A stretch of 64,000 bases of DNA from Candidatus Saccharimonadales bacterium (GCA_038317055.1 JBBQBA010000001.1:152153-216152); one strand, 5' to 3'; shown: positions 6,643 to 31,123, numbered from the stretch's first letter. Notes: generated by a model not told the origin, from the sequence alone. Numbers and translations: made by a program.

Positions 6643-6651
6643 TTTTTATTC

Positions 6652-13948: not shown

Positions 13949-15724
13949 TTAGTATTTTCTTGGTGCGATCGTATCTACGTATTGAGTAAACCAAGCTGGA
14001 TACGACATATTCATAAATCCCCCAGGGACAGCTATTCCATAAGTACAAACTGGTGCACCCCCTGACACCGTGGCACTACCGGGGCTGGCTATTGTAACTC
14101 CAATTAGTGGTGTAATTAAAGTTACCGCTGAGGTTGCATCACCTACGATGTTGCCATTACCTAAAAATACACCACCACTAACGTAGTTAACGCCTGTTAT
14201 TGTCGAGCCACTTACACCTGTATAACTAACAATAACCTGGATAGGGCTTGTAATATATAGCTTGTTTGTATTTATTGATAATACTCCCCCTGTTGAGCAT
14301 AAACCCAATGTTGAACTGATAGTTAATGTTGCACCACTTATAGTTGTGACATTTGTGATTGGAGTGGAACAGTAGTTCACAAGTGTAACCAAAGAGTTTC
14401 CCATATACCCACTACTTGTTGCTGCAATAGCTCCCGATCCGCTTACGTAGGTTACACCGTGAAGAGTATTACCTACCACACTACTAAAACTAGCAAGAAG
14501 AGTCGTTCCACTTGTTGCTATATTGATATAACCACTAGACCTATTAAGGTCAGCCGTGCTCCCCAACGTAATTGTTGCTCCACTAAGTGAAGTAACATTT
14601 GCGACCGCTGTACTGGTATAATTCACAAACGCAAAATTAGTGAAAGTTATTGTGTGCCACTGATTGTCTGAAGCAAAAATTCCACATTTTCCCGATAATA
14701 CAGCGTTATTTAAAGGTGCGTTACCACCTGTGTTTTTTATGTCTAATTTACCTGAAGAATTAATAGAAGTTAGCGTCGTAGGACCGGTATTAATATAAGT
14801 TGCACTGTAGCCCGCATCATCATTTGTAAAAGCGTGAGCATTATTAGTCTGATCACGTAAGATCGGTAATCCAGCGCTTGCTGAATTAGTCAGCATCTGG
14901 TCTATAGTTGAGCTAATCGGATTTACTCCGGGTAAAGATGCGGTAGATTGCCAGCCAACCGCACCATCATTAGTTCCGTAAAGAATTATTCCCGGTATAG
15001 TTACACCACTTGGATTAGTAACTCCAATAGTAGAAGTTTGACCTGCCAATAACGCGTTTGCTCCTATATCCATCCCGGCTGTACCACCGGAAAGTGGTGT
15101 AGACCAGGTGTAACCACTTACTACTTGGTTTGGTCCATAATTAGCTGGATTGGTATATACAGGACTAGTATTTGATAGTATTGTAGCTGGAAGTAGTGAG
15201 CAATAAGCAATAATTGTAGATTGACGATTAATAGCAACTGCTAGAGCATGGTATCCACCCCAGGATCCCCCAAAAGCTACTATAGGAATATTTGGATCAT
15301 ATGTAGTATGAATATATTCAACTACGTGATCCCACCAATGCATTTGGTTAGCAAGATATCTGGAACCATTTCCGGTGTCTGAATTAATATCATTCCAAAT
15401 TGCCAAAGCTCCATTTCCTGCACTAAAATCCTCTGGATACGGAACAGTAATAACAATCCAACCATCAGCTAGAAGATTAGCATCAAAATCAGCTCCTGCA
15501 CTTGCATATCCTGATATAGTACTATTTCCTATTATTGCCACAGGTGGAATCGGTTGAATTGCTACGCTAAGTCCGTGCATTCCTACGACAACACCACGAA
15601 CATTACCGACACCCATACCACCAGAAGGCATAAGTGTGACTACGTTATCCGAAGATACATTACAGACTGGTATTTCATTCGTTCCAAGCGTACCTACCGG
15701 TAAACAATGAGATGAAATACTCAT
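13949..15724 (-). CDS. alpha/beta-hydrolase-fold protein (GxSxG) with long Ser/Thr/Gly-rich beta-repeat C-terminal domain; paralog of 30095..31123
   Basis: 591 aa. The N-terminal ~190 aa align with the 342-aa ORF (HCLP.G.LGT.EIPV, ADGW, HWWDHVV, GGSWGGYHAL nucleophile elbow). The C-terminus has repeated ..YTG/YVSG.. motifs. Confidence 0.6.
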   Translation of the reverse strand: MSISSHCLPVGTLGTNEIPVCNVSSDNVVTLMPSGGMGVGNVRGVVVGMHGLSVAIQPIPPVAIIGNSTISGYASAGADFDANLLADGWIVITVPYPEDFSAGNGALAIWNDINSDTGNGSRYLANQMHWWDHVVEYIHTTYDPNIPIVAFGGSWGGYHALAVAINRQSTIIAYCSLLPATILSNTSPVYTNPANYGPNQVVSGYTWSTPLSGGTAGMDIGANALLAGQTSTIGVTNPSGVTIPGIILYGTNDGAVGWQSTASLPGVNPISSTIDQMLTNSASAGLPILRDQTNNAHAFTNDDAGYSATYINTGPTTLTSINSSGKLDIKNTGGNAPLNNAVLSGKCGIFASDNQWHTITFTNFAFVNYTSTAVANVTSLSGATITLGSTADLNRSSGYINIATSGTTLLASFSSVVGNTLHGVTYVSGSGAIAATSSGYMGNSLVTLVNYCSTPITNVTTISGATLTISSTLGLCSTGGVLSINTNKLYITSPIQVIVSYTGVSGSTITGVNYVSGGVFLGNGNIVGDATSAVTLITPLIGVTIASPGSATVSGGAPVCTYGIAVPGGFMNMSYPAWFTQYVDTIAPRKY

Positions 15725-15890
15725 TACTTAGATAAACCTGAATTCCCGTAATTTAAGTTAAAGTCACTGCTCTCAACTACGTTCAAAGTCTTATTCATTA
15801 TTTGTATTTCTACCCCTTAGTATTAGTTAAAATAATACGACATAATCAACATAAGCGTCAAGGACTAGAAAGAGTTATATATGGATTTGT

Positions 15891-16091
15891 TTACTTGGAT
15901 TTCTTAGAGGAAGATTTAGTACTAATATTGTTTTTTGGCTCCAAAGCTTTAGCAACACCCTGATAGTAAGTAACCTCAGCATTTAGCTCAGATAGTCTTT
16001 TTTGGAGGTTTTCCGCCTCTTTTATTATTTCTTGTATTTTTGCTACAGCCTCTTCATACGTACCTACTTCTGGTAGTTGTGATAAATCCAT
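15891..16091 (-). CDS. small coiled-coil protein (hypothetical)
   Basis: 66 aa. Heptad-like EAVAKIQEIIKEAENLQKRLSELNAEV. Lies in an operon-like run with the flanking genes. Confidence 0.4.
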   Translation of the reverse strand: MDLSQLPEVGTYEEAVAKIQEIIKEAENLQKRLSELNAEVTYYQGVAKALEPKNNISTKSSSKKSK

Positions 16092-16102
16092 ATCTGTCCT
16101 TT

Positions 16103-16600
16103 CTAATTTACCTGAACCATAATTAACCCGTGCTTGACAGGAAGAGTAATATATTTTAACTCCATAGTACCTAGAACAGAGTAATCAAAACAACCAGGGT
16201 CGTCAATTAAAATTATGGACTTTTTTGACATAAATGGAACAAAATATTCAACTTCGTCAGACCTGGAATTCGTACCGCTATCAATAAAAAGTAAGTTAAT
16301 TTCACTCTTGGGCTTAAAATCAACGCCTTTGCAATGATGTGCTTCTATAGGGAGTCCTTCAAAACCTCGATCACTTTTCCAGCAAATATCACATGGATCA
16401 CAAGTTATTAAATTGCCACTATTTAATTCTTTAGCCATGGCTCTAGCTGACTTTCCAAGGTATGTTCCAGATTCAACAATTAATTTTGGTTGAATAGTAT
16501 GCACTAAATTACAAATAACGCTAATAATTTCATCATCTACCTCAGCAGATATAGAACTATGAAAATTTATAGTTTGATTATCTTCTAAATGCTTAACCAT
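16103..16600 (-). CDS. probable class I SAM-dependent (O-)methyltransferase
   Basis: 165 aa. LIVESGTYLGKSARAMAKEL resembles motif I of family-3 O-MTases (ILEIGT..GYSA). LLFIDSG resembles the post-I acidic motif. Confidence 0.45.
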   Translation of the reverse strand: MVKHLEDNQTINFHSSISAEVDDEIISVICNLVHTIQPKLIVESGTYLGKSARAMAKELNSGNLITCDPCDICWKSDRGFEGLPIEAHHCKGVDFKPKSEINLLFIDSGTNSRSDEVEYFVPFMSKKSIILIDDPGCFDYSVLGTMELKYITLPVKHGLIMVQVN

Positions 16601-18393
16601 CCTGATCCATCAATCTCAGCCTGCCACGTAACGTTCGTAGTTGCTGGCCCATTCACATTAATTGCCGTACCATAGGCTGATGCTGAAACAGAAACAAAAT
16701 ATGGACAAAAGGATAATGTGGGAGTACCCGCAGCAGTTGCAGGATTAGAAATTGTGATAGATGAGCTAGTTGCTTTAGCTATTACCCAGCTTCCAGTTGC
16801 TATTCCAACTCCAGTTACAGCTTGACCAACACTAACTGAGCCAAACGTAGCGGCAGATGTAACTGTCTGTGAGTTCAGAGTAGTAGTACTTGCAGCGGTA
16901 AAAGTAGCTGGGTAAGTTCCCATAGTTAGTGGTGCTAGTGCTCCTGCCCCCATTGGTGAACCTACTAATGCTCTATTTGAAACCATAAACTCACCATTGA
17001 AAGCAACAGAATCATCTGAACTACCAGAAGCTCCACCAGTCCGTCTTGCCCATATTCTAGCTTTTACATGCTTTACAACATTAGCCATCGTAGGGTCTGC
17101 CCATATAGCTATCGCACCTGTAGTGGTTGTTTGTGCCCAATTCATTTGTTTACCGGTTCTAATTGGAGAGTTTATGTAGAAAGTTAGAGTAGAGCTAGCT
17201 GATACCGTTGCAGCAAAATTAATTGTTATAGATGATGTGGAACCCACTGCTGTTACTATCGTTCCAGTCTGTAGTCCTACTCCTGTTACTAACATTCCAA
17301 CAGCTACAGAACCAAAAAGTGCTGCAGAAGTAACGGTAGTTGAACTTGCTAGTGTAGATGCAACCGTAAAACTTGCTAAAGTTGAAAAAATCATAGATGC
17401 AACCGTAGTGGTTAACTGGGTAGGCAAACTTAATAATAGTGACGAAGATGAATTCTTTGCTACTACCGTTGTACCAGGTAAAATACCCGTTCCCATTACA
17501 TACTGACCAACCACTACAGAACCAAAAGCGGCTGATGATGTTACTGTTTGAGATCCAGCAGTAGTTGTAATAGGGTTTATTGAAGCCACTGTAGTTCCTG
17601 GCATCGATGTATATGCTATTACGTCTGGTGTATAGGTTACTCCTATTGCAGCTATCGAAGTGTTTATCACATCAAGTACGGGGCTAGCTGACTGTCCGGT
17701 TTGTGGTCCAACGCCCGGAAGATTAGTGATCGCCAAGCCTCCAATACCAAACGGTCCACGGTGTTGACTTGGCGCATAACTCATTTGCATATTCCAAGGG
17801 TTTATGATATTTAGTCCCATTGCACTATCTTGGTTTCGTAAAAATATACCGTTAGTGATAATGCCAAAACCACCAGCAATTTGAATGTTATCTATACCGA
17901 CAGCTTCGGTAACGTTTGCTAAAACAGAACCTAATGATAGCGTAAGGCCATACACACCAAAGGCACCAGCATAAGTAAACATTTGAGCTGAAAAAGCACT
18001 ATACTTACCGGTGCTTGACATACCACCTTGTGATTCTGAGCCTAACCCTACATTTCCAGAAGCAGTTATAGCATTTTGGCTATAGTCAGTAACGCCATTA
18101 GAGGAAAACAAGGGGTTCATATTAACAAGTAGCGAAGCCGAATTATTAGATAAATTTGATTGAGACGTGACACTTCCTTGAATTATTCTATTGTCATCAA
18201 TTACCATAGCTAGTCCACGTTTAGATTGGTTTGTGGCTGGTCCTTTAATATTAAAATAATATGGGAAAGGCTGTATACCAGTAAAAGTTCCGGACAAACT
18301 GCTATTTATAGGTGTAATACCACCCCATATATTTGTGGTGGCAGGTAACCCATTCTGTAAGCCAATACCTCTTTTAACTCCTTTATTTGCCAC
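16585..18393 (-). CDS. large Gly/Ser/Thr-rich beta-repeat protein of the fibre locus (hypothetical)
   Basis: 602 aa. Three ~50-aa internal repeats (..QTVTS.A.FGSV.VG..V.G.G...G..V.A..SSS...). Start overlaps the upstream gene stop (18393). Confidence 0.55.
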   Translation of the reverse strand: MANKGVKRGIGLQNGLPATTNIWGGITPINSSLSGTFTGIQPFPYYFNIKGPATNQSKRGLAMVIDDNRIIQGSVTSQSNLSNNSASLLVNMNPLFSSNGVTDYSQNAITASGNVGLGSESQGGMSSTGKYSAFSAQMFTYAGAFGVYGLTLSLGSVLANVTEAVGIDNIQIAGGFGIITNGIFLRNQDSAMGLNIINPWNMQMSYAPSQHRGPFGIGGLAITNLPGVGPQTGQSASPVLDVINTSIAAIGVTYTPDVIAYTSMPGTTVASINPITTTAGSQTVTSSAAFGSVVVGQYVMGTGILPGTTVVAKNSSSSLLLSLPTQLTTTVASMIFSTLASFTVASTLASSTTVTSAALFGSVAVGMLVTGVGLQTGTIVTAVGSTSSITINFAATVSASSTLTFYINSPIRTGKQMNWAQTTTTGAIAIWADPTMANVVKHVKARIWARRTGGASGSSDDSVAFNGEFMVSNRALVGSPMGAGALAPLTMGTYPATFTAASTTTLNSQTVTSAATFGSVSVGQAVTGVGIATGSWVIAKATSSSITISNPATAAGTPTLSFCPYFVSVSASAYGTAINVNGPATTNVTWQAEIDGSGWLSI

Positions 18394-18779
18394 TAAAGAT
18401 CACCCCCAGTTGCAACAATATTAACTAGTTGAGATCCCACAAAAGTTGCAGCAACTAACGTCCAGCCTGATTTAAGTTCCAAATTTCCATAACTGTTTAC
18501 TTGCCTAAATGGAGGTACAGCAGTTGTAGGTGTTATGGCGTTGATAACAACTGAGTCATAGAAATGGTATGTAGAACCATCGTACAAGAAGAGACCTATA
18601 ACACCTGCAACAGTCGTTCCAGTTCCAATGAAAACTACTTCCTCTATTTTAGTTCCATTAGACCCTGCTACCACAATAGTTACCGTGTTTGTGGGAGCTG
18701 TGTATGACGCATTCGCACTTGATGATACTACGTTTGAACCTATATTAGGTGTTGCTGCAAATTGTGGTGATGTTGCCAT
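18393..18779 (-). CDS. hypothetical beta-rich protein (128 aa) of the fibre locus
   Basis: ORF tightly packed between the fibre gene and the 602-aa gene. No recognisable domain. Confidence 0.45.
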   Translation of the reverse strand: MATSPQFAATPNIGSNVVSSSANASYTAPTNTVTIVVAGSNGTKIEEVVFIGTGTTVAGVIGLFLYDGSTYHFYDSVVINAITPTTAVPPFRQVNSYGNLELKSGWTLVAATFVGSQLVNIVATGGDL

Positions 18780-18794
18780 TTAATGACTCCTTCG

Positions 18795-20312
18795 TTATTT
18801 AAAATTAGCTTCTAGATATAAAACGTTCGATGATGAATTGGTTAATTGTTCGACAGTAGCAGCATCAGTCGGGCTAATACCATCCGCCATGTTACTTATC
18901 CGATTGTTAATTGTTCCGTTACCCATCATAACATTGGCCACAGCGGGGGCGAATTTATCTAAACTGTTAGCTCTAATGGCACTTTCACCTGCTACTCCTG
19001 TCATTATATTTATCCATACTTGAGAATCTGTATCTATAAGTAATCCAGTTGCAGGTGCAGTCATAATCCATTCTGAACTAGCATAACCACCGCCATTAAT
19101 AATTCCTACGGTTCTACTTCTAACAGTTGTTGCTGCTGCAAATTCAGCAGGCCTAGTTCCGACACTGCCACCAGAAGGTACTAGCCATAATCCATTACGA
19201 GATCCTGTTACTTGGTTAGTTAATAAAACTAGATCGTTTGCGAGTAGTGTGTATGAATCAATAACCGTTGAGCCTGCTGTGAGTGTTGGACCTCCTCCTG
19301 CATATGCAAAATCTGTTGCGGTAGTTGGAGCATATACTACTGCTGCTGGTGTAAGACTTGATATCTGTAGATTTGATCTCGAGTAACCGGCATTTCCTAC
19401 ATCGCTTAAATTATTTGCAGCAAGTAATACTCCGCTTGCTGAAGCCCCGGTTGAACCTGCTGGGCCGGTAGGACCAGTAGTTCCTTGAGAACCAGATGGT
19501 CCTGTTGCTCCAGTAGTGCCTGCTCCGGTAGCTCCTTGTGTACCAGTGTTTCCAGTGATTCCAGTTGGTCCGGTAGGGCCAGTTGTGCCTTGCGAACCAG
19601 ATGGTCCTGTTGCTCCGTCGTTGCCTGCTGGACCTGTAGCACCAGTTGTTCCAGCACCGGCAGGGCCAGTTGCTCCTGAGGCTCCAATTGTTCCTGTAGG
19701 TCCAGTAGCTCCGGTTGTTCCTGCACCAGTAGCACCTTGTGATCCGGTTGCGCCAGTAAATCCTGTTGGACCAGTTGCTCCTCCACCCGGACCTGTTGGG
19801 CCTTGCGAACCAGTCGCACCAGTAGTGCCTGAGCCAGTGGCACCTTGAGTACCTGTGGCACCTGTACCACCATCATTACCAGTTGGGCCAGTTGCACCAG
19901 TTGTTCCCACCCCTGTAGCACCTTGTGTGCCGGAAGTACCTGTTGCACCAGTAGAACCTTGACCACCCGCTCCACCGGTAGGACCTGTTGCTCCAGTTGT
20001 ACCTTGTGATCCCGAAGTACCTGTAGCCCCAGTAGATCCTTGACTTCCCGCTCCACCGGTAGGACCAGTTGCTCCAGTTGTACCAGTACCAGTTGCACCT
20101 GTTGCACCAGTGATTCCCACTGGTCCAGTGGCACCTGTTGCACCGCTACCTGGACCGGTTGCTCCAGTTGTACCTTGAGGCCCCTGGGGACCTGTTGAAC
20201 CTATAGCTGAACCCTTTAAGCTCCCGTCAGTATTTAGAGAGACACTTAAGAAATCATTTAGTATATTACCCCAATTACCATCATCACCACCGGGCGTAGG
20301 CAATCGTGCCAT
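18795..20312 (-). CDS. collagen-like triple-helix repeat protein, phage-tail-fibre-like (paralog 2)
   Basis: Start moved to [27 protein letters not shown] (ATG 20310-20312, GAGGGG 12 nt upstream). About 260 aa of G-X-Y repeats (GATGPTG...), then a C-terminal globular part with ..[28 protein letters not shown]. Confidence 0.8.
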
Positions 20313-20733
20313 AAAATTAATACCCCTCAATACCTAAATATTCGCTTGCGCTTAGTATAACAAACAAACGAACTTTTAAGAAGACTTGTGGTGCTTAAAT
20401 CGTTGTAAATTATTTTAAGAAATAGGAATATTAAATTATGGCGCTATATTCCCAAGTGAAATAGATTTTCGGACGACATCACTCTCCCAACTTGAATCAG
20501 TAAATGCTTCGTTTCCTGAGAAATAAGATTCGCTATTATAGTCCAGATGAAAACCACTTAGTTAGAAAAGTGGAATAATTGGAGTAACAGTATTTTGGGC
20601 TAATTGTATTTCAGAAAGTACAATAATTATTACTCTGTAATATACAGAATATTGGTACGCAAAAAGGGGTATGTATCGGATAATCTTGGCTTGTCAAGTA
20701 GGCCAATTGCCAACGGTTTAGTGGCTAGTGACG

Positions 20734-21366
20734 TTAAAATGCCTCTAATACACCTGTTGTATTTTGTTCAATAAATACACCCAACATACCAAAAGCATGG
20801 CTATTACCCCAACTAGCTGTGTACGCAATAGATGCTTGGGTATCGCTAATAATAAGATAACCACCTTGAGCACGAGTTGCAACTACTGTTGATGTGCTAA
20901 TTGGATTTGTTCCACTTCCTGCAGTCCAACTAGTAGGAGTACCTGAAGAAAGTGCTTGTCCTACCGCCATTAACAGGATGTCACCAGTATTCGTAGATGT
21001 TGGCATAGTCAGAATTCCGCTAGTCCCTGTTTGGGCATTTAGAGCAGTTGGTGTTCCTTCAACAGTATTTGCTGCACCGTTTAACTCCCACATAGTAATA
21101 CCCTGGCTGGTTCCACCACTACCAGCCGTAACAGTTATGGTAGTTTCCGTACCATCTGCCACACGTGTACCAAAAAAAAGTGAATTAGCTCCTGCGGACC
21201 ATGTTGCATTTGTACCATTAAAAACCCATCCAGTAACTGAAGGAGCTGAAGTAGTGGCTGATTGTGATACAAAACAACAAAGTAAATTACGAGCAGTTGG
21301 AGCAATTGCTAAGGTTGAAGCGGCTGCACCAGCTGTTTGCGATAAGTTAACTACTAAAATGGGCAT
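20734..21366 (-). CDS. hypothetical beta-rich protein (210 aa) downstream of fibre paralog 1
   Basis: Its start lies 4 nt after the stop of the 823-aa gene. Thr/Ser/Gly-rich. No recognisable domain. Confidence 0.45.
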   Translation of the reverse strand: MPILVVNLSQTAGAAASTLAIAPTARNLLCCFVSQSATTSAPSVTGWVFNGTNATWSAGANSLFFGTRVADGTETTITVTAGSGGTSQGITMWELNGAANTVEGTPTALNAQTGTSGILTMPTSTNTGDILLMAVGQALSSGTPTSWTAGSGTNPISTSTVVATRAQGGYLIISDTQASIAYTASWGNSHAFGMLGVFIEQNTTGVLEAF

Positions 21367-21369
21367 GAT

Positions 21370-23841
21370 CTATGATACCCCTACACAGCGCCACTTACTT
21401 GTTAATCCGTTCCAAATAAATCCAACCGTTAGAGGTAAAGTAGTTGAGCCATTAGAAATAAAGGGCACTTGAATATTGCTTGTCTCAGTATTAATCCATG
21501 TTAATGTCTGTGTTGCGGCTGAAAAATCTACCACTTTGACGAGAAGTTTCTGACCATCTGTAGGTGAAGGACTTGATGTAGCAATAGTAATTTGCAGTGC
21601 AGCAGCTGAACCATTCTGTACAGTAACTACGTCTGAACTACTGGGTACCGTTGCTGTATTGGGTGGTCCAGTTACTGTGGCAATCACCTTCTTTGCTGCT
21701 GCACCCACCGGACTCCAAACACCCGCAGTACCACCAGAACTATATGACCCCGTCGGAGCACTGGCAACAATTACTTCAAATTGTGTCGCCGATAGGCCTG
21801 CTGAAATCACGACCCAAGTCCCATTCGGGTTATTTGTGGCAAAGCCCGTTATGCCAGAGATGCTTACAGATTGGCCAACTATTAAGCTGTTAGCTGCTGT
21901 GTACGTAACCGTTGTACCTGAATTCGTTGCGCCAGTAATAGGCCCTGTGGTACTAGAAATTGGTGAGCATATCCACATTTGACCAGAACTTGTCACAATG
22001 AAATCATTTGGAGAGAATAATTTCGTAGCTCCAGTAGCTACACCTGACGCAGTGCCACCAGCCAACCTTATTACTGTTGTTGCGCCAGTTATACCAGTTA
22101 GTGCAAGTCCACCATTGGTTTGTAATGTAGCTGTGTATGTAATTGATCTATATAAAATGGCATCCGGGGAGGTACTTCCACCAACCCCAAAGCCAAGAGC
22201 AGGAACCGTAAAGAAAACTCCCATACTTAGATAGGGCTGAGAGTCACCAGAATTAAAATAAAGTGATAAACCCGCTGGATTTAATGTTTGAAATACTTTG
22301 CCGTGAGCTGCAGTACTATCTTGGAATGTTCCGGTTACAGCAATAACAGGTGGATTTGTACCCGTAACAGAAATTGTATTGTTTGTATCCGCACTTGGCA
22401 ATTGAGAATAAATAAGTGGCTGACCACTAGAGGCAGCAGCTGCAACATTAGTCAGAGTTGAGCCACCCATACTATAGTTACCTGTTGCTGAAGTTAATTG
22501 ATTAAGAGAGTTGTTTCTAATAATAGTTTCTTGAGATAAATTACCAACCCATGAGTTCAAGATGAACCAATTTGTACCATCCGAATCAAGCCAAATTGAA
22601 TCATATTGAACAATCAAGCCAATTGATGAGACACCATCAATAGTACCTGAAGCCGGTGTTACGGTTATTGTTCCAGCACCGTTATCAATCTTTTTAATAA
22701 ATACTTGATTACCCAGACTAGCTGCCGGTAATGTTAAAGTCCAACCTCCTACGCCTGCAGTTGCTAGTACAATATCGCCTGATATTGCTGCATAAGTAGT
22801 ATTTTGGGCAACTACTCGGTTAACGCTAATTCTACTACGAGGAAGATTACCTTGAATTGCTATCCAAATACCACCAGATGCATTATAAATATAAGTTATA
22901 GCTTGATTTACTAAACTAAGCGATTGCGTCGTAGTACCACCAGTAATATCAAATACATCTGAACCACCCGAAGCAATTGTAAGTTGATATCCAAAAGTTG
23001 CGGAATTTCCAACAACAATTTTAACCCCTATAATTGTTTTATCCGTCGGTGCAGTTGGCAAAGTAACAGTAAATGATCCGCTAGATATATCGCATGCTAC
23101 AAGATCATTGGGATTTGCTGAGTAATTTGAAGTTTTAACGGAAGTCAGTGACAATTGTGTTATTGGACCAGTAGCGCCGGTCGTGCCTTGAGTACCAGCG
23201 TTCCCGGTTGGGCCAGTTGCACCTGTTGTACCTTGTGAACCAGACGGTCCTGTGGCACCAGTCGTTCCCGCACCAGTGGCACCGGTTGTGCCTTGAGTAC
23301 CAGCGTTCCCGGTTGGGCCAGTTGCACCTGTTGTACCCGCACCAGTGGCACCATCTGGGCCAGTTGCACCAGTAAAACCAGTTGGTCCTGTGGCTCCACC
23401 CCCAGGGCCAGTTGGACCTTGTGAACCAGTGGCACCTGTTGTGCCAACTCCAGTAGCACCCGTATTACCCAACGAACCAGTTGGGCCAGTTGCACCTGTT
23501 GTTCCCGCACCGGTGGCACCAGTAGTGCCGCTGCTGCCGACTGAACCGCTTGCACCCGTTGATCCTTGCGTACCGATTCCACCTGATGGACCTGTCGCTC
23601 CAGTATTGCCATTATTGCCTTGTGATCCAGTAGCCCCTGTTCCACCATCGTTACCTTGGGGTCCTGTTGATCCGGTAGACCCAGCACCAGGTCCTGTAGC
23701 ACCCTGAGGACCCTGAGGTCCAGTTGGGCCTATTGTAGAACCCTTAAGTGTACCATCAGAATTTAGAGACACACTTAAAAAATCATTAAGTATGCTACCC
23801 CAGTTACCATCGTCACCACCGGGTGAAGGTAATCTTGCCAT
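21370..23841 (-). CDS. collagen-like triple-helix repeat protein, phage-tail-fibre-like (paralog 1)
   Basis: 823 aa. N-terminus [27 protein letters not shown] is shared with two paralogs. About 190 aa of G-X-Y repeats, then a ~600-aa beta-rich C-terminal region. Confidence 0.8.
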
Positions 23842-23951: not shown

Positions 23952-24191
23952 CTAGACTCCGTATGGGCCGGCACCGAAACCAACTTTTGAGCCAGAATTA
24001 GCTGTTTGGTGTTTGTGAATAACAGTAGTTTTGCCTTTACCCGTCAAGAAATGAACTATTGGACCTAGTCCAACTACTGTAAGTGCACCTAATCCAACAA
24101 TAGATAAGAATTCAGTACGATTAACTTCTCTGGTAAGAAGTTCTTGGATTGGCTTTACGTTTTTCTGCTGATTTATATTTTGTTGATCCAT
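23952..24191 (-). CDS. small membrane protein with Tat-signal-like N-region (hypothetical)
   Basis: 79 aa. ..REVNRTEFLSIVGLGALTVVGLG.. resembles an (S/T)RRxFLK plus h-region but has a single Arg. Immediately downstream of tatC. Confidence 0.4.
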   Translation of the reverse strand: MDQQNINQQKNVKPIQELLTREVNRTEFLSIVGLGALTVVGLGPIVHFLTGKGKTTVIHKHQTANSGSKVGFGAGPYGV

Positions 24192-24244
24192 TTTTGATCT
24201 TTTTATATTAACTTTTTTTGTTTTTATGGTTACTATTTGTTACT

Positions 24245-25177
24245 TTACTGTACTAATGCATAACCGTCAATATCTTTTCTGTCTATTATCCCCCGATTTT
24301 GATTAGCTTCAGTTTCCACAACCATTTGAGGTTGTAGCAATCGAGAATTTTGAGCTATCAATTGACGTTGTTTCCTATTTTCTTCATCTTTTTGTCTGAG
24401 TACAGCTATTGAAGCTTTTTTACCCGGTCGGTGTTCATACCAAACGATAATTATCGCTAATTGATACATGATTATTATCGGCATTGCTATTAATCCCTGA
24501 TAAATAAGACTAGGTACAGGGGCCATTAGCATGGCTACAATAAAACTACCTGCAATTACATGTCTTTCGTATTTCAAAAACCTACCAGGTCCTTTTGGTT
24601 TAACCTTATCTATAAACCAAACAATTAACGGGAGCTGAAAAAGTAGTGCAGAACCACCTAGGTATATCGTTAGAAATGACATGTATTCTTGTATAGTGAA
24701 AAGTGCATGTATTTGGCTAGTATTAAATTGGTTACCCAAAAAATGCAGAGCTGTTGGTAAACCAACATAATATCCAAATATGAAACCAGCGGTCGCAAGA
24801 AGAAACGAAACAATGCTTGCCTTAAGTACCAATTTTGTATGTTTTGTCGAGATTACCGGTTCGATAAATTTCATGATGTGATAAAGAATTACAGGAAGCG
24901 CGATTACTATACCTACATAGGTACATATTTGAAATAGAAAGGCAATACCACCTCCCGGTGAGGTGTATATAAACTGCTGACCATGAGCTGGTCTTAATAG
25001 AAAATGCACAATTCGCTGTTGGACAAAATATGCCAATGTAGAAAAGAGTAGAATCGCCCCAACTACATAGAAGAGACGAGATCTTATCTCAATTAAGTGC
25101 TCTACAAACGGTGCTTTTATATTAGCTATTTGCGTCTGTTGTGGTTGCTTCTTGTTTTTCTTTTGGTGCGCCCTCAT
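24245..25177 (-). CDS. tatC: twin-arginine translocase subunit TatC
   Basis: 310 aa, 6 TM. HLIEIRSRL start motif. The annotated start overlaps the tatA 3' end by 56 nt, so the true start is uncertain. Confidence 0.85.
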   Translation of the reverse strand: MRAHQKKNKKQPQQTQIANIKAPFVEHLIEIRSRLFYVVGAILLFSTLAYFVQQRIVHFLLRPAHGQQFIYTSPGGGIAFLFQICTYVGIVIALPVILYHIMKFIEPVISTKHTKLVLKASIVSFLLATAGFIFGYYVGLPTALHFLGNQFNTSQIHALFTIQEYMSFLTIYLGGSALLFQLPLIVWFIDKVKPKGPGRFLKYERHVIAGSFIVAMLMAPVPSLIYQGLIAMPIIIMYQLAIIIVWYEHRPGKKASIAVLRQKDEENRKQRQLIAQNSRLLQPQMVVETEANQNRGIIDRKDIDGYALVQ

Positions 25178-25340
25178 GATAGCCGTCGTTTATCCCTTTA
25201 CGTAACTCTCGCATGGACTCACCTAAGCTTTTAGATAGCTGAGGTAATTTTTTTCCACCAAAGAGTAACAATACTATTGCTAAAATGATGATTAGTTCTG
25301 GCGCTCCTAGATCTAAAAACGCGAAATTTGTTGGTAACAT
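25122..25340 (-). CDS. tatA: twin-arginine translocase subunit TatA/E (copy 1)
   Basis: 72 aa. LGAPELIIILAIVLLLFGGKKLPQLSKSLGESMRELRKG is the canonical TatA TM plus amphipathic helix. Confidence 0.88.
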   Translation of the reverse strand: MLPTNFAFLDLGAPELIIILAIVLLLFGGKKLPQLSKSLGESMRELRKGINDGYHEGAPKEKQEATTTDANS

Positions 25341-25421
25341 TTTTATTTCTTCCTCTTGTTATATATCACCATGTATCGTAGCATTAAGCTATAGCTTTTG
25401 TAAACAAAATAGTAAAAAAAT

Positions 25422-26126
25422 ATGTATAACGAATTTTTTAAATTACCCGTAGGAATATTAAGTAGTGTTTATGGATGCGGTGCTTATGGTAATGGTACAT
25501 ACAATAACTCCTGTTCACCATCTCCCTCACCTACTCCGACTCCAACTCCTACGTCAACACCTGCCACTCCTCCAGTTGTTTCAATAGTTTCAATAGATAA
25601 TACTCCATATACATTGGGATCCATTGAGGACGTAAATAGTTTACCGACTATATCTGGTTTAGCTCCTGCAAACTCGACAATAGTTATCACTATTACTCCG
25701 GGGGATACAACCTGTACTACAAAGGCAGACGCACAAGGTAATTGGAGTTGTAAAATCACCCAACCACTTACGAATGGATTACATACCGTAGGAGTAGTCG
25801 CGACAACACCGTCGGGTCAAGTAATTACACTTGCTTCATTCCAGATTAATGTTAGCGCTAACGTAACAACAAATACGAGCACTACTCAGTCGACGCCAAA
25901 ACCTGTACATCATACAAACTATTTGGAAATCTCATTTATTATACTAATACTAGGTCTACTTATTGGTTTTCTTATATTCTTCTTATCAAAAAGACGTAAG
26001 AAAAAAGATGATGATAGCCAGCATCCTTCTGGACCCACAATTATCCCTGACGCTCCGACTGGAATTCCCCCAGCTCCGCCTTCTTCATATCCACCAACCC
26101 CACCAACGATTACTCCTTCCAGCTAA
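25422..26126 (+). CDS. surface protein: (S/T)P-rich linker, Ig-like domain, TM anchor, Pro-rich tail
   Basis: 234 aa. SPSPSPTPTPTPTSTP linker, TISGLAPANSTIVITITPGDTTCTTKADAQGNWSC (bacterial Ig-like pattern), TM ISFIILILGLLIGFLIFFL, KRRKKK stop-transfer. Confidence 0.55.
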   Translation: MYNEFFKLPVGILSSVYGCGAYGNGTYNNSCSPSPSPTPTPTPTSTPATPPVVSIVSIDNTPYTLGSIEDVNSLPTISGLAPANSTIVITITPGDTTCTTKADAQGNWSCKITQPLTNGLHTVGVVATTPSGQVITLASFQINVSANVTTNTSTTQSTPKPVHHTNYLEISFIILILGLLIGFLIFFLSKRRKKKDDDSQHPSGPTIIPDAPTGIPPAPPSSYPPTPPTITPSS

Positions 26127-26168
26127 TAATATTTAACGCACTAGTTTATATCTGCTACAGTAGACTTG

Positions 26169-27335
26169 ATGAAGTTTAGGTTCCATGTAGTAAATCTTCC
26201 ACATACTCAAACAACCAAAGACTACACGGCTTGTGCATACACAATGAAGGTGCTGAAGTTTTGTAAAATGATGAAGTCTTTAGGTCATGAGGTCTTTTTA
26301 TATGCATCTGAAGAAAACGAAGCTCCCTGTGATGAGCTCATAACGATAGTCTCAAAAAAAGAACAATCAAAATGGTTCGGCGATTATGACCACAAAACTA
26401 ATATGTTCAATATTGAGTGGAATGAAACCCTTCCCCACTGGACTATTCCAAATATGCGGGCAATAAAGGAAATAAAGAAACGCGCTCAACAAAGAGATTT
26501 TATTTGTATTATTGGTGGTGTTTGCCAGAAACAAATATCCGATGGACTACCAGAGCTAATGTCGGTTGAATATGGTATTGGCTACGAAGGTGTTTACTCT
26601 AACTTTAGGGTTTATGAAAGCTATGCTCATATGCATTATGTTCAGGGAATTATGCACGACGATAATGGACGATTCTTTGATACAGTTATACCAAATTACT
26701 TCGATCCTGATGAATTTACTTTCAGAGAAAAAAAGGATGATTTCTATCTATTTATTGGTAGACTGATTCCTCGGAAAGGACCAGAAATGGCAGTTGAGGT
26801 AACTCGCAAAATTGGGGCTAAACTAATACTTGCCGGTCAAGGTGTAAAGAAAATTGAGGGTAACAAAATTTACGGCGAAGAAGGCATGATAATTGAGGGT
26901 AATCACATTAAACATATGGGTCATGCTGATGTTGCCCAAAGGTCTGAACTTATGGGCCGGGCAAAAGCTGTATTTGTATGTACGTATTATCTTGAACCCT
27001 TTGGTGGCGTATCTATCGAGCCAATGTTTTGTGGTACTCCAGTAATAACTACTGATTGGGGCGCTTTCCCCGAAAATGTAGTCCATGGTTCAGTTGGCTA
27101 CCGTGCTAGAACTATGGGTGAAGCAGTTTGGGCAGCTCAAAATCTAGATAAACTAAAAAGCCCAACAAAGATCCGTGAATATGCAATGAAAAATTTTAGT
27201 ATGGAGCGCGTTAAATATCTTTATCAAGCTTATTTTGAACAACTAAATGAAATTTGGGATAATGATGGCTGGTACTCAGACTGGAATAAAGGTGTATCTA
27301 AATACAACCGTTACACTAGATACCCTGCAAAATAA
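26169..27335 (+). CDS. GT-B fold glycosyltransferase (family 1/4-like)
   Basis: 388 aa from the ATG at 26169 (the track starts at the TTG at 26166). EX7E-type motif EPFGGVSIEPMFCGTPVI. FIGRLIPRKG. Confidence 0.8.
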   Translation: MKFRFHVVNLPHTQTTKDYTACAYTMKVLKFCKMMKSLGHEVFLYASEENEAPCDELITIVSKKEQSKWFGDYDHKTNMFNIEWNETLPHWTIPNMRAIKEIKKRAQQRDFICIIGGVCQKQISDGLPELMSVEYGIGYEGVYSNFRVYESYAHMHYVQGIMHDDNGRFFDTVIPNYFDPDEFTFREKKDDFYLFIGRLIPRKGPEMAVEVTRKIGAKLILAGQGVKKIEGNKIYGEEGMIIEGNHIKHMGHADVAQRSELMGRAKAVFVCTYYLEPFGGVSIEPMFCGTPVITTDWGAFPENVVHGSVGYRARTMGEAVWAAQNLDKLKSPTKIREYAMKNFSMERVKYLYQAYFEQLNEIWDNDGWYSDWNKGVSKYNRYTRYPAK

Positions 27336-27379
27336 AAAAAGAGCTGCTGCTCTATTTAGATAAAACTGAAACTAAATAA

Positions 27380-28042
27380 TTAAGCTTTGTGTTTAATTAT
27401 GTACTGATAAAGTATTGCTGAAGCAGCACCATATAGTACAAGCCAGTAGATCGTAAGAAGAATTCCTATTATTGTAATTGAAGGAATAATCATCAGCAAT
27501 GATACGCCGAAGATTCCATAAACTTTTCCAACATGACCTCTAGTTGCATTCCAACTAGCTTTGTAGGCATCAACTGCACTCAGCTTCTTATCTATTAGGA
27601 AATAAGGAGAAAGGACTATTCTTGGAACAATAATTAGTCCTGGAATTATAAGTAGTAGAAACGAAAGACAAGATAGTGCTAATAGTATATAAAGCAGAAT
27701 TGCTTGAAGATAAAGTGTTTTAGCTTTATCTATAACTTCACTAAGAGTTAGAGCATTGCCTTTAACTCCTGAAAGATAAAGTTGGTATATACAAAGACCA
27801 ATAAACACACTTATAAGTGCTGAAATAAGTTGACCAATCGTTGGGATGTATCTTAATACGACGCTGGCAACTATATTAATTAGCCATAGCTCGACAATCG
27901 GAACTATATTTAACATTACTGCTTCACGAGAAGGTTTGTATGCAGCAAAAGCACCTTGCCAGGATTTTGGATGTGAAGATCCTTTTGGCAAAACAACAGT
28001 AGCGCTGTGGTCTGTCTTTTTCAGATCTTTATCCATAATCAT
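27380..28042 (-). CDS. multi-pass membrane protein (DUF975-like, hypothetical)
   Basis: 220 aa, 4-5 hydrophobic helices. Convergent with the glycosyltransferase. Confidence 0.5.
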   Translation of the reverse strand: MIMDKDLKKTDHSATVVLPKGSSHPKSWQGAFAAYKPSREAVMLNIVPIVELWLINIVASVVLRYIPTIGQLISALISVFIGLCIYQLYLSGVKGNALTLSEVIDKAKTLYLQAILLYILLALSCLSFLLLIIPGLIIVPRIVLSPYFLIDKKLSAVDAYKASWNATRGHVGKVYGIFGVSLLMIIPSITIIGILLTIYWLVLYGAASAILYQYIIKHKA

Positions 28043-28224
28043 TCAACTATATTCTTAAAGGATTTGTTTTGCAACTAAACTGCAGCAATTATGCAATTAA
28101 CGGTGAAGAATCGACTAATATTTGCCGTTCTTGCAAATTACTTATGTAAATAGTGTTTATTGTATTTACAATGCTAAGGCTTAGTGCTACGCTAAAATTA
28201 ACAATTAATGAGGGAAAAGCGAAC

Positions 28225-28440
28225 ATGTTACCAACAAATTTTGCGTTCTTAGATCTTGGAACACCAGAACTTATAATTATATTGGCGATTGTTCTACTAC
28301 TTTTCGGCGGAAAAAAACTACCTCAGCTATCAAAAAGTCTTGGCGAATCAATGCGTGAAATACGTAAAGGTGTTAATGGCGATTCTCACGACAATGCAAA
28401 ATCTACAAAAGAAAAAGAACCACAAGAACCAACCAGTTAG
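28225..28440 (+). CDS. tatA: twin-arginine translocase subunit TatA/E (copy 2)
   Basis: Start moved to the ATG at 28225 (GAGGGA 10 nt upstream). The first ~50 aa are almost identical to copy 1 at protein level, but with many synonymous nucleotide differences. Confidence 0.88.
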   Translation: MLPTNFAFLDLGTPELIIILAIVLLLFGGKKLPQLSKSLGESMREIRKGVNGDSHDNAKSTKEKEPQEPTS

Positions 28441-28743
28441 TATATAGTACTACGCTACTTACGCATTGAACGTTAATCACAACCATCGTTGAGACGTATT
28501 GTAACTAAACCAATTATTTTCTAATTAGTTTAATACATTCGTCAGTTTGAGAGATATTCTGACTATTGATTAGTTGAGAATCTAATTTAATCTAAGTGTT
28601 AATTTAAATATTAATTGATAATTAGATGAATATTGTTAATTGAAAGCACTGATTTTATTCTTTAAAGCGATTGCAAGGGTTTAAAACGGTAAAGTTAATG
28701 TTTGTTTGATGCTATTTTTTATATAATCCTATATTTTGGTTGC

Positions 28744-28772
28744 TTGATAGTACGTCTCGAACTGGTTATGAT
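28744..28772 (+). promoter_or_regulatory. candidate sigma70-type promoter for fibre paralog 3
   Basis: TTGATA-17 nt-TATGAT, about 50 nt upstream of the ATG at 28824. Confidence 0.3.
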
Positions 28773-28823
28773 ATGAACATTAGTAATAGAAGTAAACATA
28801 TAAAATGTTTGGATAACTAGCTT

Positions 28824-30095
28824 ATGGCTCGTCTACCAATACCTGGAAGTGATACGGGCAATTGGGGAAGTATCCTCAATGACTTCTTAAGTGTCTCTTT
28901 AAATACAGATGGTTCTCTAAAAGGTTCCGCTATAGGTTCCACTGGTCCTCAAGGACCACAAGGTACCCAAGGAGCAACTGGTCCTGGAGCTGGAGCAACT
29001 GGTGCTACCGGTCCTACTGGACTACAAGGTACAACTGGCCCCACCGGAGCGATAGGCTCATCCGGTGCTACTGGCTCAGGAACAACTGGAGCTACTGGTT
29101 CTACCGGACTTCAAGGAACAACTGGTTCTACCGGACCCTCAGGTAGCGTAGGAACTCAAGGAACAACTGGTGCTACAGGACCTTCAGGTAGCGTAGGTGG
29201 TCAAGGAACAACTGGACCAACCGGTCCAACAGGAAATCAAGGAGCGACTGGTCCCGCTACTGGAGTAGCTAGTGGAGATTTAACTGGAAATTATCCGAAT
29301 CCTACTTTAGTAGGTACAGCGAATGTAGAGAGTATTATTAGAGCTAATACCTTGGATCAGTTTGGTTCAGCTACGGGTCTCATTAGTCTAGGAAATGGTA
29401 CGTCTAATAATAGGATAGTAAACTTGGCGGCTGGAACTAATTCTACTGACGCACCTAATATGAGCCAACTCGGAGGTTGGGTACCGGATGCGAATGTATG
29501 GACACGAATATCGAATACTCAGTTCACAACTCCAACAAACCAGACCAACATATATGTCAATGGTACGCAATTAAAGTGGATCGATAGTGGCGGAACTAAG
29601 TACGGTACCGTTGCGTCATCATCGTTTGCAACTTCGACTACAACCGTAATCCTAGCTTCTACTGTAGACTATTTGCTTGCATCTTCTCCGGGAGCTGGAG
29701 CTAATTGGTATTCATATACGATCCCTCCAGACTTTCCGTCAACATTTACTTGGGCTCCGACATTCTCGGGTATTACAGGTGGTGATCCTGCTGGTAGTTA
29801 CTTTTTTGGTATGATTAGCTTAAAGTTTATGTTTGTGAGTGCTACAGGTATTTCAGGAACTGCAACGGGTACCACGCTAGGAGCAACACTGCCTATGGCA
29901 GCTGGTAGAACAGTATATCAACTTGCAGAAGGCGTTGATAATGGCGCAAATGCACTTGTGGCAACAAATACCTCTGCGTCTATCTTGACAGTAGCTAGCT
30001 CTACGGCTTTAACTTTCGCTAAGGAACCTGGTGGTGCCGCATGGACAAACTCTGGCTGGCGAAAAGTCTCATTTGAAATTGTGGTGCCATTATAA
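28824..30095 (+). CDS. collagen-like triple-helix repeat protein, phage-tail-fibre-like (paralog 3)
   Basis: 423 aa. [28 protein letters not shown]-terminus, ~108 aa of G-X-Y, then ..[29 protein letters not shown].. and a beta-rich C-terminus. Confidence 0.8.
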
Positions 30096-31123
30096 TGGCG
30101 CTCACTCATTGTCTACCAACTGGGTCTCTTGGTACATTTGAAATCCCAGTAATTCAAGTACCCGGAGGTGGAACTGTATTGGAACCGGTTGGATCGAAGC
30201 GTGGAGTGGTAGTACTACTCCATGGACTACAGCTTATAAATAACTCATCCTTCCCTGTTACCTTAATCGATAATTCGGTAGACCAGTTATTAACTTTTGC
30301 TAATGATCTAGTCGCTGATGGTTGGGTAGTACTTTTTCCGGGTATGATGGGAGATAATAATGTACTAAGCCAAGATAACGCAATATTTAACGACATAAGT
30401 AATGACACAGGTCACGGATCAAGACTACTATCTAATACTATGCACTGGTGGGACCACGTTGTGGATTGGGTGAGTATGAACTATGGTAGTTTGCCAATAG
30501 TTCCTTTTGGAATCTCATGGGGGGGTTGGCATGCTCTGCAAATAGGTATAAATAGAACTTCTTCGATCTTAGCATATGGAGCTAATACTCCAGTCACTCA
30601 ATTGTGGACGCTTCCTTTTTTCAACCTATATGATAAGCCACCAAAGGTCTCCTATACTCTTGATTCCAGTATGAATAATCAAAACCTCCCGCAATCGACA
30701 ATCACAGTAAATGAGTCTATATCAGGAGCAGCTAGCTCTGGTTCTTTAGTAGTTGTTACTTCTTCTGGCAACCAATTTGTATATTACACCGGTAAAAGTG
30801 GAAAGTCTTTTACGGGCTGCACTGGCGGTTTTGGTACAGACACAATGTCAAGTAATGGCTCTGTTACTCAATCTACCTTTACTAGTGGGCTTGATATTTC
30901 GCCAACTGCATTAAACGGCGTAACTACTATTCCAGGATATGTAACTTGGGAAACGGGTGATCTTGTGGTTGGTTACGCCAACACACAAGTTCTTTATAAT
31001 ACAGCTACGGCTGCTGGTATTCAACTTACTAACAACGTAATTACTGGCGGAGGTCATAATCTTTTAGCAACAGAGGTATCAGCGGCTATGAATTGGTTCA
31101 CCAGTATCGTGGATAATCTATGA
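30095..31123 (+). CDS. alpha/beta-hydrolase-fold protein (GxSxG), paralog of 13949..15724
   Basis: 342 aa. Its ATG overlaps the fibre gene stop (TAATGG). HWWDHVV and GISWGGWHAL nucleophile elbow. C-terminal FVYYTGKSGKSFTGCTGG motif. Confidence 0.65.
   Translation: MALTHCLPTGSLGTFEIPVIQVPGGGTVLEPVGSKRGVVVLLHGLQLINNSSFPVTLIDNSVDQLLTFANDLVADGWVVLFPGMMGDNNVLSQDNAIFNDISNDTGHGSRLLSNTMHWWDHVVDWVSMNYGSLPIVPFGISWGGWHALQIGINRTSSILAYGANTPVTQLWTLPFFNLYDKPPKVSYTLDSSMNNQNLPQSTITVNESISGAASSGSLVVVTSSGNQFVYYTGKSGKSFTGCTGGFGTDTMSSNGSVTQSTFTSGLDISPTALNGVTTIPGYVTWETGDLVVGYANTQVLYNTATAAGIQLTNNVITGGGHNLLATEVSAAMNWFTSIVDNL

Follow-up and report, generated by a model that had tools for sequence, protein, structure and literature searches.

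A 17-kb region (13949-31123) of a 64-kb bacterial DNA segment, here called the window, raises the question of why the same gene types stand in mirror image on its two arms. Reading outwards from the centre, each arm carries tatA, a gene of the twin-arginine translocation (Tat) system, then collagen-like fibre genes and then a gene for an α/β-hydrolase. The original prediction saw in this an old inverted duplication, a possible functional link between Tat and the fibres, and a segment that might invert. All the genes that it had listed were found in their places (Table 1), and Pfam searches confirmed the two TatA proteins, TatC, the three collagen-repeat proteins, the methyltransferase, the immunoglobulin (Ig)-like protein and the GT4 glycosyltransferase (GT). 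We consider it fairly probable that the region is a conserved cellular tat locus, from a bacterium that probably belongs to the Saccharimonadales (Patescibacteria), with two different phage-type receptor-binding modules at its outer edges. One layer of such a composite would be a conserved centre (membrane protein, GT4 and Ig-like genes) with tatA2 on one side and tatA1, tatC and a 79-aa open reading frame (ORF) on the other; the second layer would be two non-identical, long-resident islands of fibre plus esterase genes, one on each flank. The mirror image would then be due to two modules, different from each other, that by chance lie on either side of tatA copies which were inverted beforehand.

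We compared the tat locus with those of relatives, referred to by locus numbers (L). In L019, whose TatC is 75% identical to that of the window, tatA2, the membrane protein, GT, Ig-like protein, tatA1, tatC and 79-aa ORF genes are arranged and oriented as in the window, and neither flank carries a fibre or hydrolase gene. In this relative tatA2 is followed by an unrelated 147-aa ORF, tRNA-Glu(UUC) and a homolog of the 314-aa ORF of the window; the tRNA gene lies ~0.5 kb from tatA2, with only the 147-aa ORF between them. In the closest relative found (L025; TatC 79%), where the centre is partly visible, the CLC channel gene starts 125 bp after the 79-aa ORF, and from there on, beginning with ZnuA, the genes match those of the window. 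The entire block 13949-23841 is absent there, and the left island is absent from L019 as well. A further relative (L020; TatC 67%) carries two tatA genes in a rearranged layout. These comparisons speak against the duplication of a whole arm (tatA, fibre and hydrolase), as L019 lacks both islands, L025 lacks the left one, and the two hydrolases fall into different clades. Of the relatives, L019 and L020 have the tatA pair; a gene with the fibre N-domain adjoins the tat-linked 79-aa ORF in L020 and L021, and none does in L019, L025 and L023.

At full length, the two TatA proteins share 77% of their residues. Across codons 2-51 they share 94% of amino acids and 77% of nucleotides, and a Nei-Gojobori count gave 30 synonymous versus 4 non-synonymous differences, the proportion of synonymous differences (pS) being 0.81 and thus saturated. 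Both proteins score above the family cut-offs of PF02416 (54.5 bits for tatA1 and 57.5 bits for tatA2, versus 21) and TIGR01411 (60.2 and 58.3, versus 53.9) and have the N-terminal transmembrane helix, F-G-G-K hinge and amphipathic helix of the family, and a DNA alignment indicated that the sequence upstream of the tatA2 start codon is partly conserved with that of tatA1. The near-identity of the first 50 residues in the face of many synonymous differences, noted in the original prediction, was therefore reproduced, and we agree with its interpretation: by its substitution pattern, the pair is an ancient inverted duplication under strong purifying selection. Since L019 and L020 also carry two copies each, the tatA duplication predates the split from these relatives, and the saturation of synonymous sites rules out recent gene conversion between the copies. 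A complete Tat system was described as unusual among the Saccharibacteria genomes compared in a previous study (PMC6031116).

Inversion of the centre through these paralogs, which had also been proposed, is unsupported by the sequence comparison. The inverted tatA arms amount to 182 nt at 75% identity, bracketing a 2.9-kb segment, and the longest exact run common to the copies is 17 nt. No recombinase gene was found among the genes scanned in the region, and no promoter-terminator or repeat signal around the centre stood out. The orientation of the centre relative to tatA1-tatC is unchanged in L019 and L025; the L020 locus is rearranged, yet not by a simple flip of the centre. Neither long near-identical repeats, nor a dedicated recombinase among the genes scanned, nor a flipped segment in L019 and L025 was seen. 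In L020 (9781-15652) the order is tatA, tatC, GT, a truncated Ig-like gene, tatA, 79-aa ORF and fibre, and its tatC-adjacent TatA is closer to the window tatA2 (81%) than to tatA1 (70%), a pattern which suggests past recombination or reshuffling among tat genes.

The pairing of fibre and hydrolase also occurs outside the window. In nine other loci with readable context, a fibre-like gene (with the neck motif, the N-domain or both, see below) ends at the start of a hydrolase gene, and five of the nine are phage, prophage or viral contigs. Capsid and amidase genes accompany the pair in L015 (G+C content (GC) 66%), and TerL, portal, connector and prohead protease genes in L016 (GC 45%). L017 (GC 62%; RecE/RecT) and L018 (GC 66%; a head-decoration-like domain and a GT) are IMG/VR contigs, and L001/L007 is a terminase-bearing region of a 624-kb contig (GC 65%) of a metagenome-assembled genome (MAG) labelled Acidimicrobiaceae. 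The pairs of L003, L004 and L014 lie in ordinary, unrelated chromosomal settings, and L005 is probably a chimeric contig in which the hydrolase gene adjoins CLC. Homologs of the hydrolase, 45-48% identical over the full length, directly follow a fibre-like gene in L015 and L016, and likewise in L017, L018 and L001/L007. The fibre and hydrolase genes overlap by 4 nt in L003, L004, L014, L015 and L016; in the window, the stop codon of fibre 3 and the start codon of the 342-aa hydrolase overlap by 1 nt (TAATG). A fibre-hydrolase unit thus stands on the right arm as predicted, and is loose on the left arm, where four genes separate fibre 2 from the 591-aa hydrolase. When the tat-locus proteins of the window were used as tblastn queries, no homolog of tatA, tatC or the 79-aa ORF was found in eight of the loci (flanks of up to 10 kb), and in L005 the same search returned hydrolase and CLC matches only. 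Because the nine loci are paired and none has tat nearby, the fibre-esterase pairing is, on the evidence of these gene neighbourhoods, a conserved module with clear phage membership, and the link with tat is peculiar to the window. The repeated adjacency of TatA with fibre and hydrolase, formerly taken as a sign of a functional link, loses its force in view of nine such pairs without tat within 10 kb.

Some features of these loci deserve mention in their own right. L003 (8445-11125) and L004 (8454-11125) share the fibre-hydrolase cassette and downstream genes, with a tRNA-Arg ~0.8 kb away; their upstream neighbours differ (NDK versus an MFS transporter), so that the 5' edge of the cassette would be a recombination breakpoint. 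In L014 and L001 the fibre genes are interrupted by what look like frameshifts, which may be assembly errors. The nearest homolog of the 591-aa hydrolase is encoded on L005, whose positions 1-9990 encode eukaryote-like proteins (a fungal-type HET domain, CENP-O) and are joined directly to Saccharimonadales-like sequence; given its probable chimerism, only the hydrolase-CLC junction of this contig was used. This junction is retained at 64% (hydrolase) and 70% (CLC) amino acid identity.

All three fibres consist of a 37-aa N-terminal domain, a collagen G-X-Y stalk, a neck motif that includes NRIxNxAxGxxxTDAxNxxQL, and a C-terminal part. The stalks, which span residues ~38-229 in fibre 1, ~250 aa in fibre 2 and residues 38-148 in fibre 3, were recognised as collagen by PF01391 (E = 2.7e-21 for fibre 2, 1.6e-14 and 1.7e-12 for the other two), and fibre 1 has a long non-collagen C-terminal part. 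In fibre 1 the collagen matches extend over residues 38-227. Among the paralogs the N-domain and stalk are 61-66% identical, and the C-terminal parts are unrelated save for the short neck motif. The necks scored 22.7 and 26.8 bits with YadA_stalk, under the cut-off of 28.4, and the fibres lack the make-up of YadA-like trimeric autotransporter adhesins; neither a signal peptide nor a C-terminal anchor was visible on inspection of their sequences. Fibre 2 matched PHROG tail-fibre families with E down to 1e-38, mostly from its collagen part. The C-terminal 277 aa of fibre 3, which are non-collagen, are 57% identical to the fibre preceding the hydrolase in the phage contig L016, and provide better evidence of a phage relationship because the PHROG scores are mostly collagen. 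Cultured Streptomyces phages of the BRock group encode collagen-repeat proteins in which the N-domain recurs at 55-61% identity. In BRock itself (L022), the collagen proteins with the N-motif, gp186 and gp211 (100187-101134 and 107303-109144), are scattered in a large array of tRNA genes, outside the tail gene module. A protein search with a 41-aa N-domain query returned two fragments only, a scan of viral contigs with the fibre 3 C-domain returned two weak matches only, and in the literature we found no paper on fibres of such a kind in Saccharibacteria.

Pfam, NCBIfam and PHROG models gave no match to either hydrolase, and since no family model matches, their identity rests on a catalytic triad and a predicted fold. 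A protein search found 64 homologs. In an alignment of 29 sequences, Ser141 (in G-x-S-x-G), Asp289 and His321 are invariant and an H-G motif at residues 43-44 is nearly so; the 591-aa copy aligns with the same triad. An AlphaFold2 (AF2) model of the 342-aa hydrolase built on this alignment had a mean predicted local distance difference test score (pLDDT) of 92.1 and a predicted template modelling score (pTM) of 0.91. Foldseek searches with it gave 657 PDB matches at E <= 1e-3, headed by carboxylesterases, feruloyl esterases and monoacylglycerol lipases with a probability of 1.0 and a sequence identity of 11-16%, and the best full-length matches among predicted viral structures were Arthrobacter phage esterases. 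In the model the fold is that of an α/β-hydrolase, complete with nucleophile elbow and Ser-Asp-His triad. Taken together, the triad, the fold and the structural matches lead to the prediction that both proteins are serine esterase-type α/β-hydrolases. An ~80-aa β-insert of the 342-aa hydrolase (residues ~184-260) matches domains in large phage tail and baseplate proteins. The search of GenBank phages by tblastn with the hydrolase found nothing, and profile searches with the hydrolase alignment gave only 2 loci in genome contigs and 6 short loci without useful context in metagenome contigs.

The two hydrolases share 46% of residues over the first ~180 aa (E = 1e-41) and 44% within the catalytic domain. 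For that domain, identities of 51-82% link the 342-aa copy with at least eight other family members, and identities of 48-72% link the 591-aa copy with eight others. In a neighbour-joining tree they fell into separate clades, the 591-aa hydrolase clustering with the homologs P0061, P0058, P0050 and P0053 and not with the right-arm copy. Their architectures also differ: the 342-aa type carries the β-insert, and the 591-aa type has none and bears a long, repeat-containing C-terminal extension.

The left island occupies ~9.9 kb, bounded by the 79-aa ORF and the CLC channel gene, and contains two fibre genes, four accessory genes, the methyltransferase gene and the gene of the long esterase. Bounded by tatA2 and tRNA-Glu, the right island (~2.9 kb) holds a fibre and an esterase gene that are translationally coupled. 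None of the eleven island ORFs is disrupted, and both triads are complete. At third codon positions the islands have a GC (GC3) of 0.20-0.31, the same as the core genes on either side. Composition gives no evidence of recent acquisition, the raised GC at 18-24 kb coming from Gly, Ala, Pro and Thr codons with host-like GC3. The islands do not look like recent arrivals or decaying DNA by these sequence measures, and since they are intact and host-like in codon usage, the modules are probably maintained by selection.

Among the accessory proteins, the 602-aa protein has three ~45-aa repeats, e.g. TSSAAFGSVVVGQYVMGTGILPGTTVV, and shows weak similarity (E = 8e-4) to 8eci_1, a decoration-protein chain; internal repeats similar to those of the 602-aa protein occur in the C-terminal half of the 591-aa hydrolase. 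A viral-contig scan with the 602-aa ORF found nothing, the 210-aa ORF had no match in Pfam or PHROGs, homologs of the accessory genes at 15891-18779 were found in none of the fetched loci, and the 138-aa ORF had no counterpart in the other fetched loci. By eye, no signal peptide was detected in the 66-aa, 165-aa, 602-aa and 128-aa proteins.

TatC gave a full-length match above the cut-offs (PF00902, 152.9 bits versus 25.1; TIGR00945, 136 versus 132.7; profile positions 1-208 of 208). The 79-aa ORF matches NCBIfam NF038009, a "twin-arginine translocation system-associated protein" (E = 6.5e-12, positions 6-65 of 70), at 45.5 bits, a score under the curated cut-off of 100 bits. As expected of NF038009 members, it has a tatC or tatA as its neighbour: it lies directly 3' of tatC in the window, L019, L025 and L023, and in L020 its homolog stands after a tatA. 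From score and position, the ORF is best treated as a diverged relative of NF038009; a diverged TatA/TatB was ruled out (hhalign probability 0.3%). It carries a V-N-R-T-E-F-L motif, a Gly-rich transmembrane segment and a C-terminal GFGxGPYG. An exhaustive search collected 47 cluster representatives of 62-129 aa, plus one outlier of 1197 aa, with the pattern [KR]-[ED]-[VM]-[STND]-R-[K/x]-E-F-[LI], a Gly-rich hydrophobic segment, F-L-T-G-K and a C-terminal G-Y-G-x-x-x-Y-G. The core of the consensus, [ST]-R-K-E-F-L, resembles the Tat signal (S-R-R-x-F-L-K) with R-K replacing R-R. No described function for the family was found. Homologs of the 79-aa ORF lie at 10977-11210 in L019, 13149-13433 in L020, 9156-9428 in L021, 11059-11259 in L023 and 2689-2925 in L025; in L024 no such ORF was recognisable.

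A gene with the fibre N-domain lies 110 bp 3' of the 79-aa ORF in the window and 95 bp 3' of it in L020, where it encodes a 707-aa fibre; the N-domain of fibre 1 is 81% identical to that of this fibre. In L021, a 227-aa N-domain protein is encoded 10 bp 3' of the homolog and is followed by a 1903-aa protein. Such a gene thus follows the 79-aa ORF in two of five further relatives (L020 and L021) and not in L019, L025 and L023. In the same stretch of L021 (6275-15833), three surface proteins with Sec signals are encoded 3' of tatC, ahead of the 79-aa-ORF-like gene, and no signal peptide was seen in the 1903-aa repeat protein.

A regular-expression and hydropathy scan of all window ORFs of at least 60 aa found no Tat signal in the fibres or hydrolases, so the observation that the fibres lack a twin-arginine motif was upheld; as for non-canonical signals, for which a search had been proposed, a Tat-like motif was present in the 79-aa ORF, and the motif scan found none in the fibres. 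The sole candidate in that scan was a 438-aa ORF (33101-34417, minus strand), SNWRRNLVIAAASVVGAVSLASC, with a Tat-like signal followed by a lipobox, which makes it a candidate Tat-exported lipoprotein by its sequence. This ORF contains long (GS)n and PTTT repeats, lies at a distance of ~2 kb from the right arm and gives weak matches to a PHROG "attachment protein" and to RHS repeats.

As to the centre, the Ig-like protein is tail-anchored with a Pro/Thr linker. The GT is 82-85% identical in L019, L020 and L025, above the conservation of TatC (67-79%), whereas the membrane protein is at 59% and the Ig-like protein at 42-46%; in L019 and L025 these genes are arranged and oriented with respect to tatA1 as they are in the window. 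A match to phrog_3408 spans the whole GT4 protein (E = 3e-95), whose identity to a GT of Synechococcus phage ACG-2014f is 43%. As a marker of phage cargo or foreign origin it was ruled out, being kept in place at 82-85% identity in relatives. Unrelated GT4 genes lie near the fibre-hydrolase pairs of the phage contigs L015 and L018.

The window as a whole (GC ~0.32-0.45), part of a contig of 491,555 bp, has the profile of a small, low-GC bacterial chromosome and contains tpiA, pgk, the genes of a UvrD-type helicase and a ZnuABC-type transporter, folD, tmRNA and three tRNAs. TatC homologs at ~47-53% identity and one locus with a hydrolase homolog bear the source-record label Candidatus Saccharimonadales. 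Unusually long non-coding gaps lie 5' of fibre 2 (20331-20733, ~400 bp) and fibre 3 (28441-28823, 383 bp); the similarity of the fibre genes starts at the start codon, with none in the two gaps, and a promoter-like site, TTGATA-17-TATGAT, is present at 28744-28772 in the gap 5' of fibre 3. In a promoter-terminator scan the counts did not exceed those of shuffles (57 vs 52.7 +/- 7.5; 20 vs 14.2 +/- 4.1), and no operon calls were made from it.

Table 1. Features of the mirror-image region and its right border (positions in the window).
Feature	Position	Strand	Family match or remark
591-aa α/β-hydrolase	13949-15724	-	triad; outer end of left island, abuts CLC channel gene
66-aa coiled-coil ORF	15891-16091	-	island accessory gene
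S-adenosylmethionine (SAM) methyltransferase, 165 aa	16103-16600	-	PF13578
602-aa repeat protein	16585-18393	-	island accessory gene
128-aa ORF	18393-18779	-	island accessory gene
Fibre 2, 505 aa counted from ATG	18795-20312	-	PF01391
210-aa ORF	20734-21366	-	between fibre 1 and fibre 2
Fibre 1, 823 aa	21370-23841	-	PF01391
79-aa ORF	23952-24191	-	third gene of tatA1-tatC operon
tatC	24245-25177	-	PF00902, E = 1.3e-44, 152.9 bits
tatA1	25122-25340	-	PF02416, E = 7e-15
Ig-like protein	25422-26126	+	Big_13
GT-B/GT4 glycosyltransferase	26166-27335	+	Glycos_transf_1
220-aa polytopic membrane protein	27380-28042	-	centre
tatA2, 71 aa counted from ATG	28225-28440	+	PF02416, E = 7.9e-16
Fibre 3, 423 aa	28824-30095	+	PF01391
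342-aa α/β-hydrolase	30095-31123	+	triad, AF2 model
138-aa ORF and tRNA-Glu(UUC)	31426-31954	-	outer boundary of right island; tRNA by ARAGORN and Rfam

Several findings weigh against a composite of tat locus and phage-type modules. Among the window genes scanned with Pfam and PHROG (~12-45 kb) no integrase, terminase, capsid or portal gene was found, and the island borders have no attachment-site (att)-like direct repeats of at least 10 nt. No prophage was recognised in this range, and a place within a phage structural module was seen only for the homologs in L015-L018 and L001. With neither hallmark genes nor att repeats here, the label "phage-type" rests on homologs elsewhere, and most of the PHROG tail-fibre score stems from the low-complexity collagen part. 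Modules on both flanks of one locus in one genome would have to be a coincidence, and the junction of the 79-aa ORF with a fibre gene recurs in L020 and L021, which is not expected under random placement next to tat. Judged from six relatives, the recurring junction could go back to a fibre site of the ancestor that was lost repeatedly, could be a hot spot for insertions, or could reflect functional coupling, and we regard the last of these as quite improbable. A coupling of this kind would have signal-less cytoplasmic trimers hitchhike through their N-domain on the 79-aa protein, which would then tether the fibre to the surface. It would make sense of the match to NF038009, of the Tat-signal-like combination of family motif, Gly-rich segment and basic patch, and of N-domain genes 3' of the 79-aa ORF in three genomes although the rest of the fibres differs; the N-domain is even better conserved between the window and L020 (74-81%) than TatC (67%), and no island protein showed a signal peptide by eye. 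Yet the fibres lack the twin-arginine motif, the 79-aa ORF stands beside tatC without a fibre in three relatives, its NF038009 score is under the curated cut-off, neither tat nor this ORF lies within 10 kb of the pair in nine other loci, of which five are viral or prophage, phages require no export of such proteins, and to our knowledge Tat transport of long collagen-stalk trimers is without precedent. We therefore hold the coupling to be very unlikely. The export of folded or trimerised fibres by Tat, once suggested for this locus, retains a weak hint from the motif of the 79-aa ORF and the recurring junction, against the missing motif and the lack of linkage elsewhere, and the mirror synteny is weak evidence for it. 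Similarly, a scenario in which soil Saccharimonadales adopted actinophage-type fibres and esterases as attachment organelles, with Tat and the 79-aa partner exporting and tethering them by hitchhiking and with the recurring junction as a mark of this coupling in the genome, appears highly unlikely.

A single ancient inverted duplication of tatA, fibre and hydrolase, followed by expansion of the left arm and by loss of both arms in L019 and L025, would account directly for three paralogous gene types in mirror order, and the saturated synonymous divergence of tatA is old enough for hydrolases at 46% identity. We give it little chance, since each hydrolase is closer to members from other genomes or phages than to its partner in the window, their domain architectures differ, the fibre C-domains are unrelated (that of fibre 3 being close to a phage fibre), and at least two independent double losses would be needed, with the tatA pair kept each time. 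Equally hard to believe is that the islands are prophage remnants, from one prophage or two, in decay and without present function, as their patchy distribution among close relatives, the tRNA gene next to the right island and the apparent frameshifts in the L014 and L001 fibre genes might suggest; those frameshifts may be assembly errors, and intact ORFs with full triads and fully host-like GC3 argue otherwise. In addition, the hydrolase/CLC junction, with a hydrolase identity near that of its core neighbour, implies long constrained retention, and reduced genomes delete non-functional DNA quickly. Saccharimonadales are obligate epibionts whose cultured hosts are Actinomycetota, and the fibres and esterases might be domesticated host-attachment gear, of actinophage type and independent of Tat, which recognises and modifies the envelope of the bacterial host. 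Homologous cassettes in the high-GC contigs L015, L017, L018 and L001 (the Acidimicrobiaceae MAG), the N-domain in Streptomyces phages, the nearest viral esterase structures in Arthrobacter phages, and the intact, host-like cassettes kept in very small genomes are in keeping with this idea. TM7x, a Saccharibacterium, is reported to be bound by a phage whose host is an actinobacterium (PMC13578794), so that the three partners would share surface biology. However, no export route or anchor is evident for the island proteins, the cassettes are absent from the closest relatives, and L016 (GC 45%) may be a phage of Saccharimonadales itself and a simpler source, making domestication unlikely in our view.

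We prefer the composite of a cellular tat locus and two phage-type modules. By homology, each fibre would form a homotrimer whose 37-aa N-domain docks it to a common partner and whose collagen triple-helix stalk and neck carry a variable C-terminal binding domain. The partner Ser-Asp-His hydrolase would strip ester-linked groups from the fibre-bound envelope polymer, as phage receptor-modifying esterases do. It is a possibility that the modules now serve the bacterium in host recognition, or a phage-like element encoded elsewhere. If the composite is correct, it cautions that mirror synteny can arise from unrelated mobile modules flanking old inverted paralogs, and an unannotated esterase family (~64 homologs, no model) would join the phage receptor-binding modules. 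In very small epibiont genomes, fibre-esterase cassettes of phage style persist intact, and their kin occur in phages of high-GC hosts, one relative lying in an Acidimicrobiaceae MAG, and Actinomycetota are the group on which Saccharibacteria live; if the cassettes are used by the cell, they may point to how Saccharibacteria recognise their hosts. The small Tat-associated protein with its Tat-like R-K-E-F-L motif may be an uncharacterised Tat component that is open to direct testing.

Compared with known systems, the modules share with phage collagen-like tail fibres and esterases the PF01391 stalk, the trimeric neck motif, the conserved N-terminal adaptor and the variable C-domain, and with phage fibre-esterase modules the adjacent, translationally coupled hydrolase and homologs in phage structural regions (L015-L018). 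They differ in standing alone in a bacterial chromosome, with no capsid, terminase, portal or integrase gene among those scanned. The hydrolases have the core fold, the Ser-Asp-His triad, the nucleophile elbow G-x-S-W-G-G and the H-G oxyanion motif in common with esterases and monoacylglycerol lipases (4fbl, LipS; 3pf9, cinnamoyl esterase) and Arthrobacter phage esterases, whereas the ~80-aa β-domain takes the place of the cap, a repeat extension of ~300 aa doing so in the 591-aa copy, and an N-terminal T-H-C-L-P motif is conserved in the family. The phage esterases in most descriptions belong to the SGNH/GDSL type; in contrast, the present family represents previously unmodelled α/β-hydrolases. 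Like invertible DNA segments such as shufflons or those recombining through inverted paralogs, the centre is bracketed by two inverted homologous sequences, but these have no identity run above 17 nt, are saturated at synonymous sites and keep a constant orientation among relatives. Finally, as in TatA/TatE paralog pairs, there are two TatA-family genes in one genome, one beside tatC and both under strong purifying selection; in this locus, however, the copies are inverted around a conserved Ig/GT/membrane protein segment, and the operon has a third small gene, not TatA or TatB but NF038009-like, with a Tat-signal-like motif.

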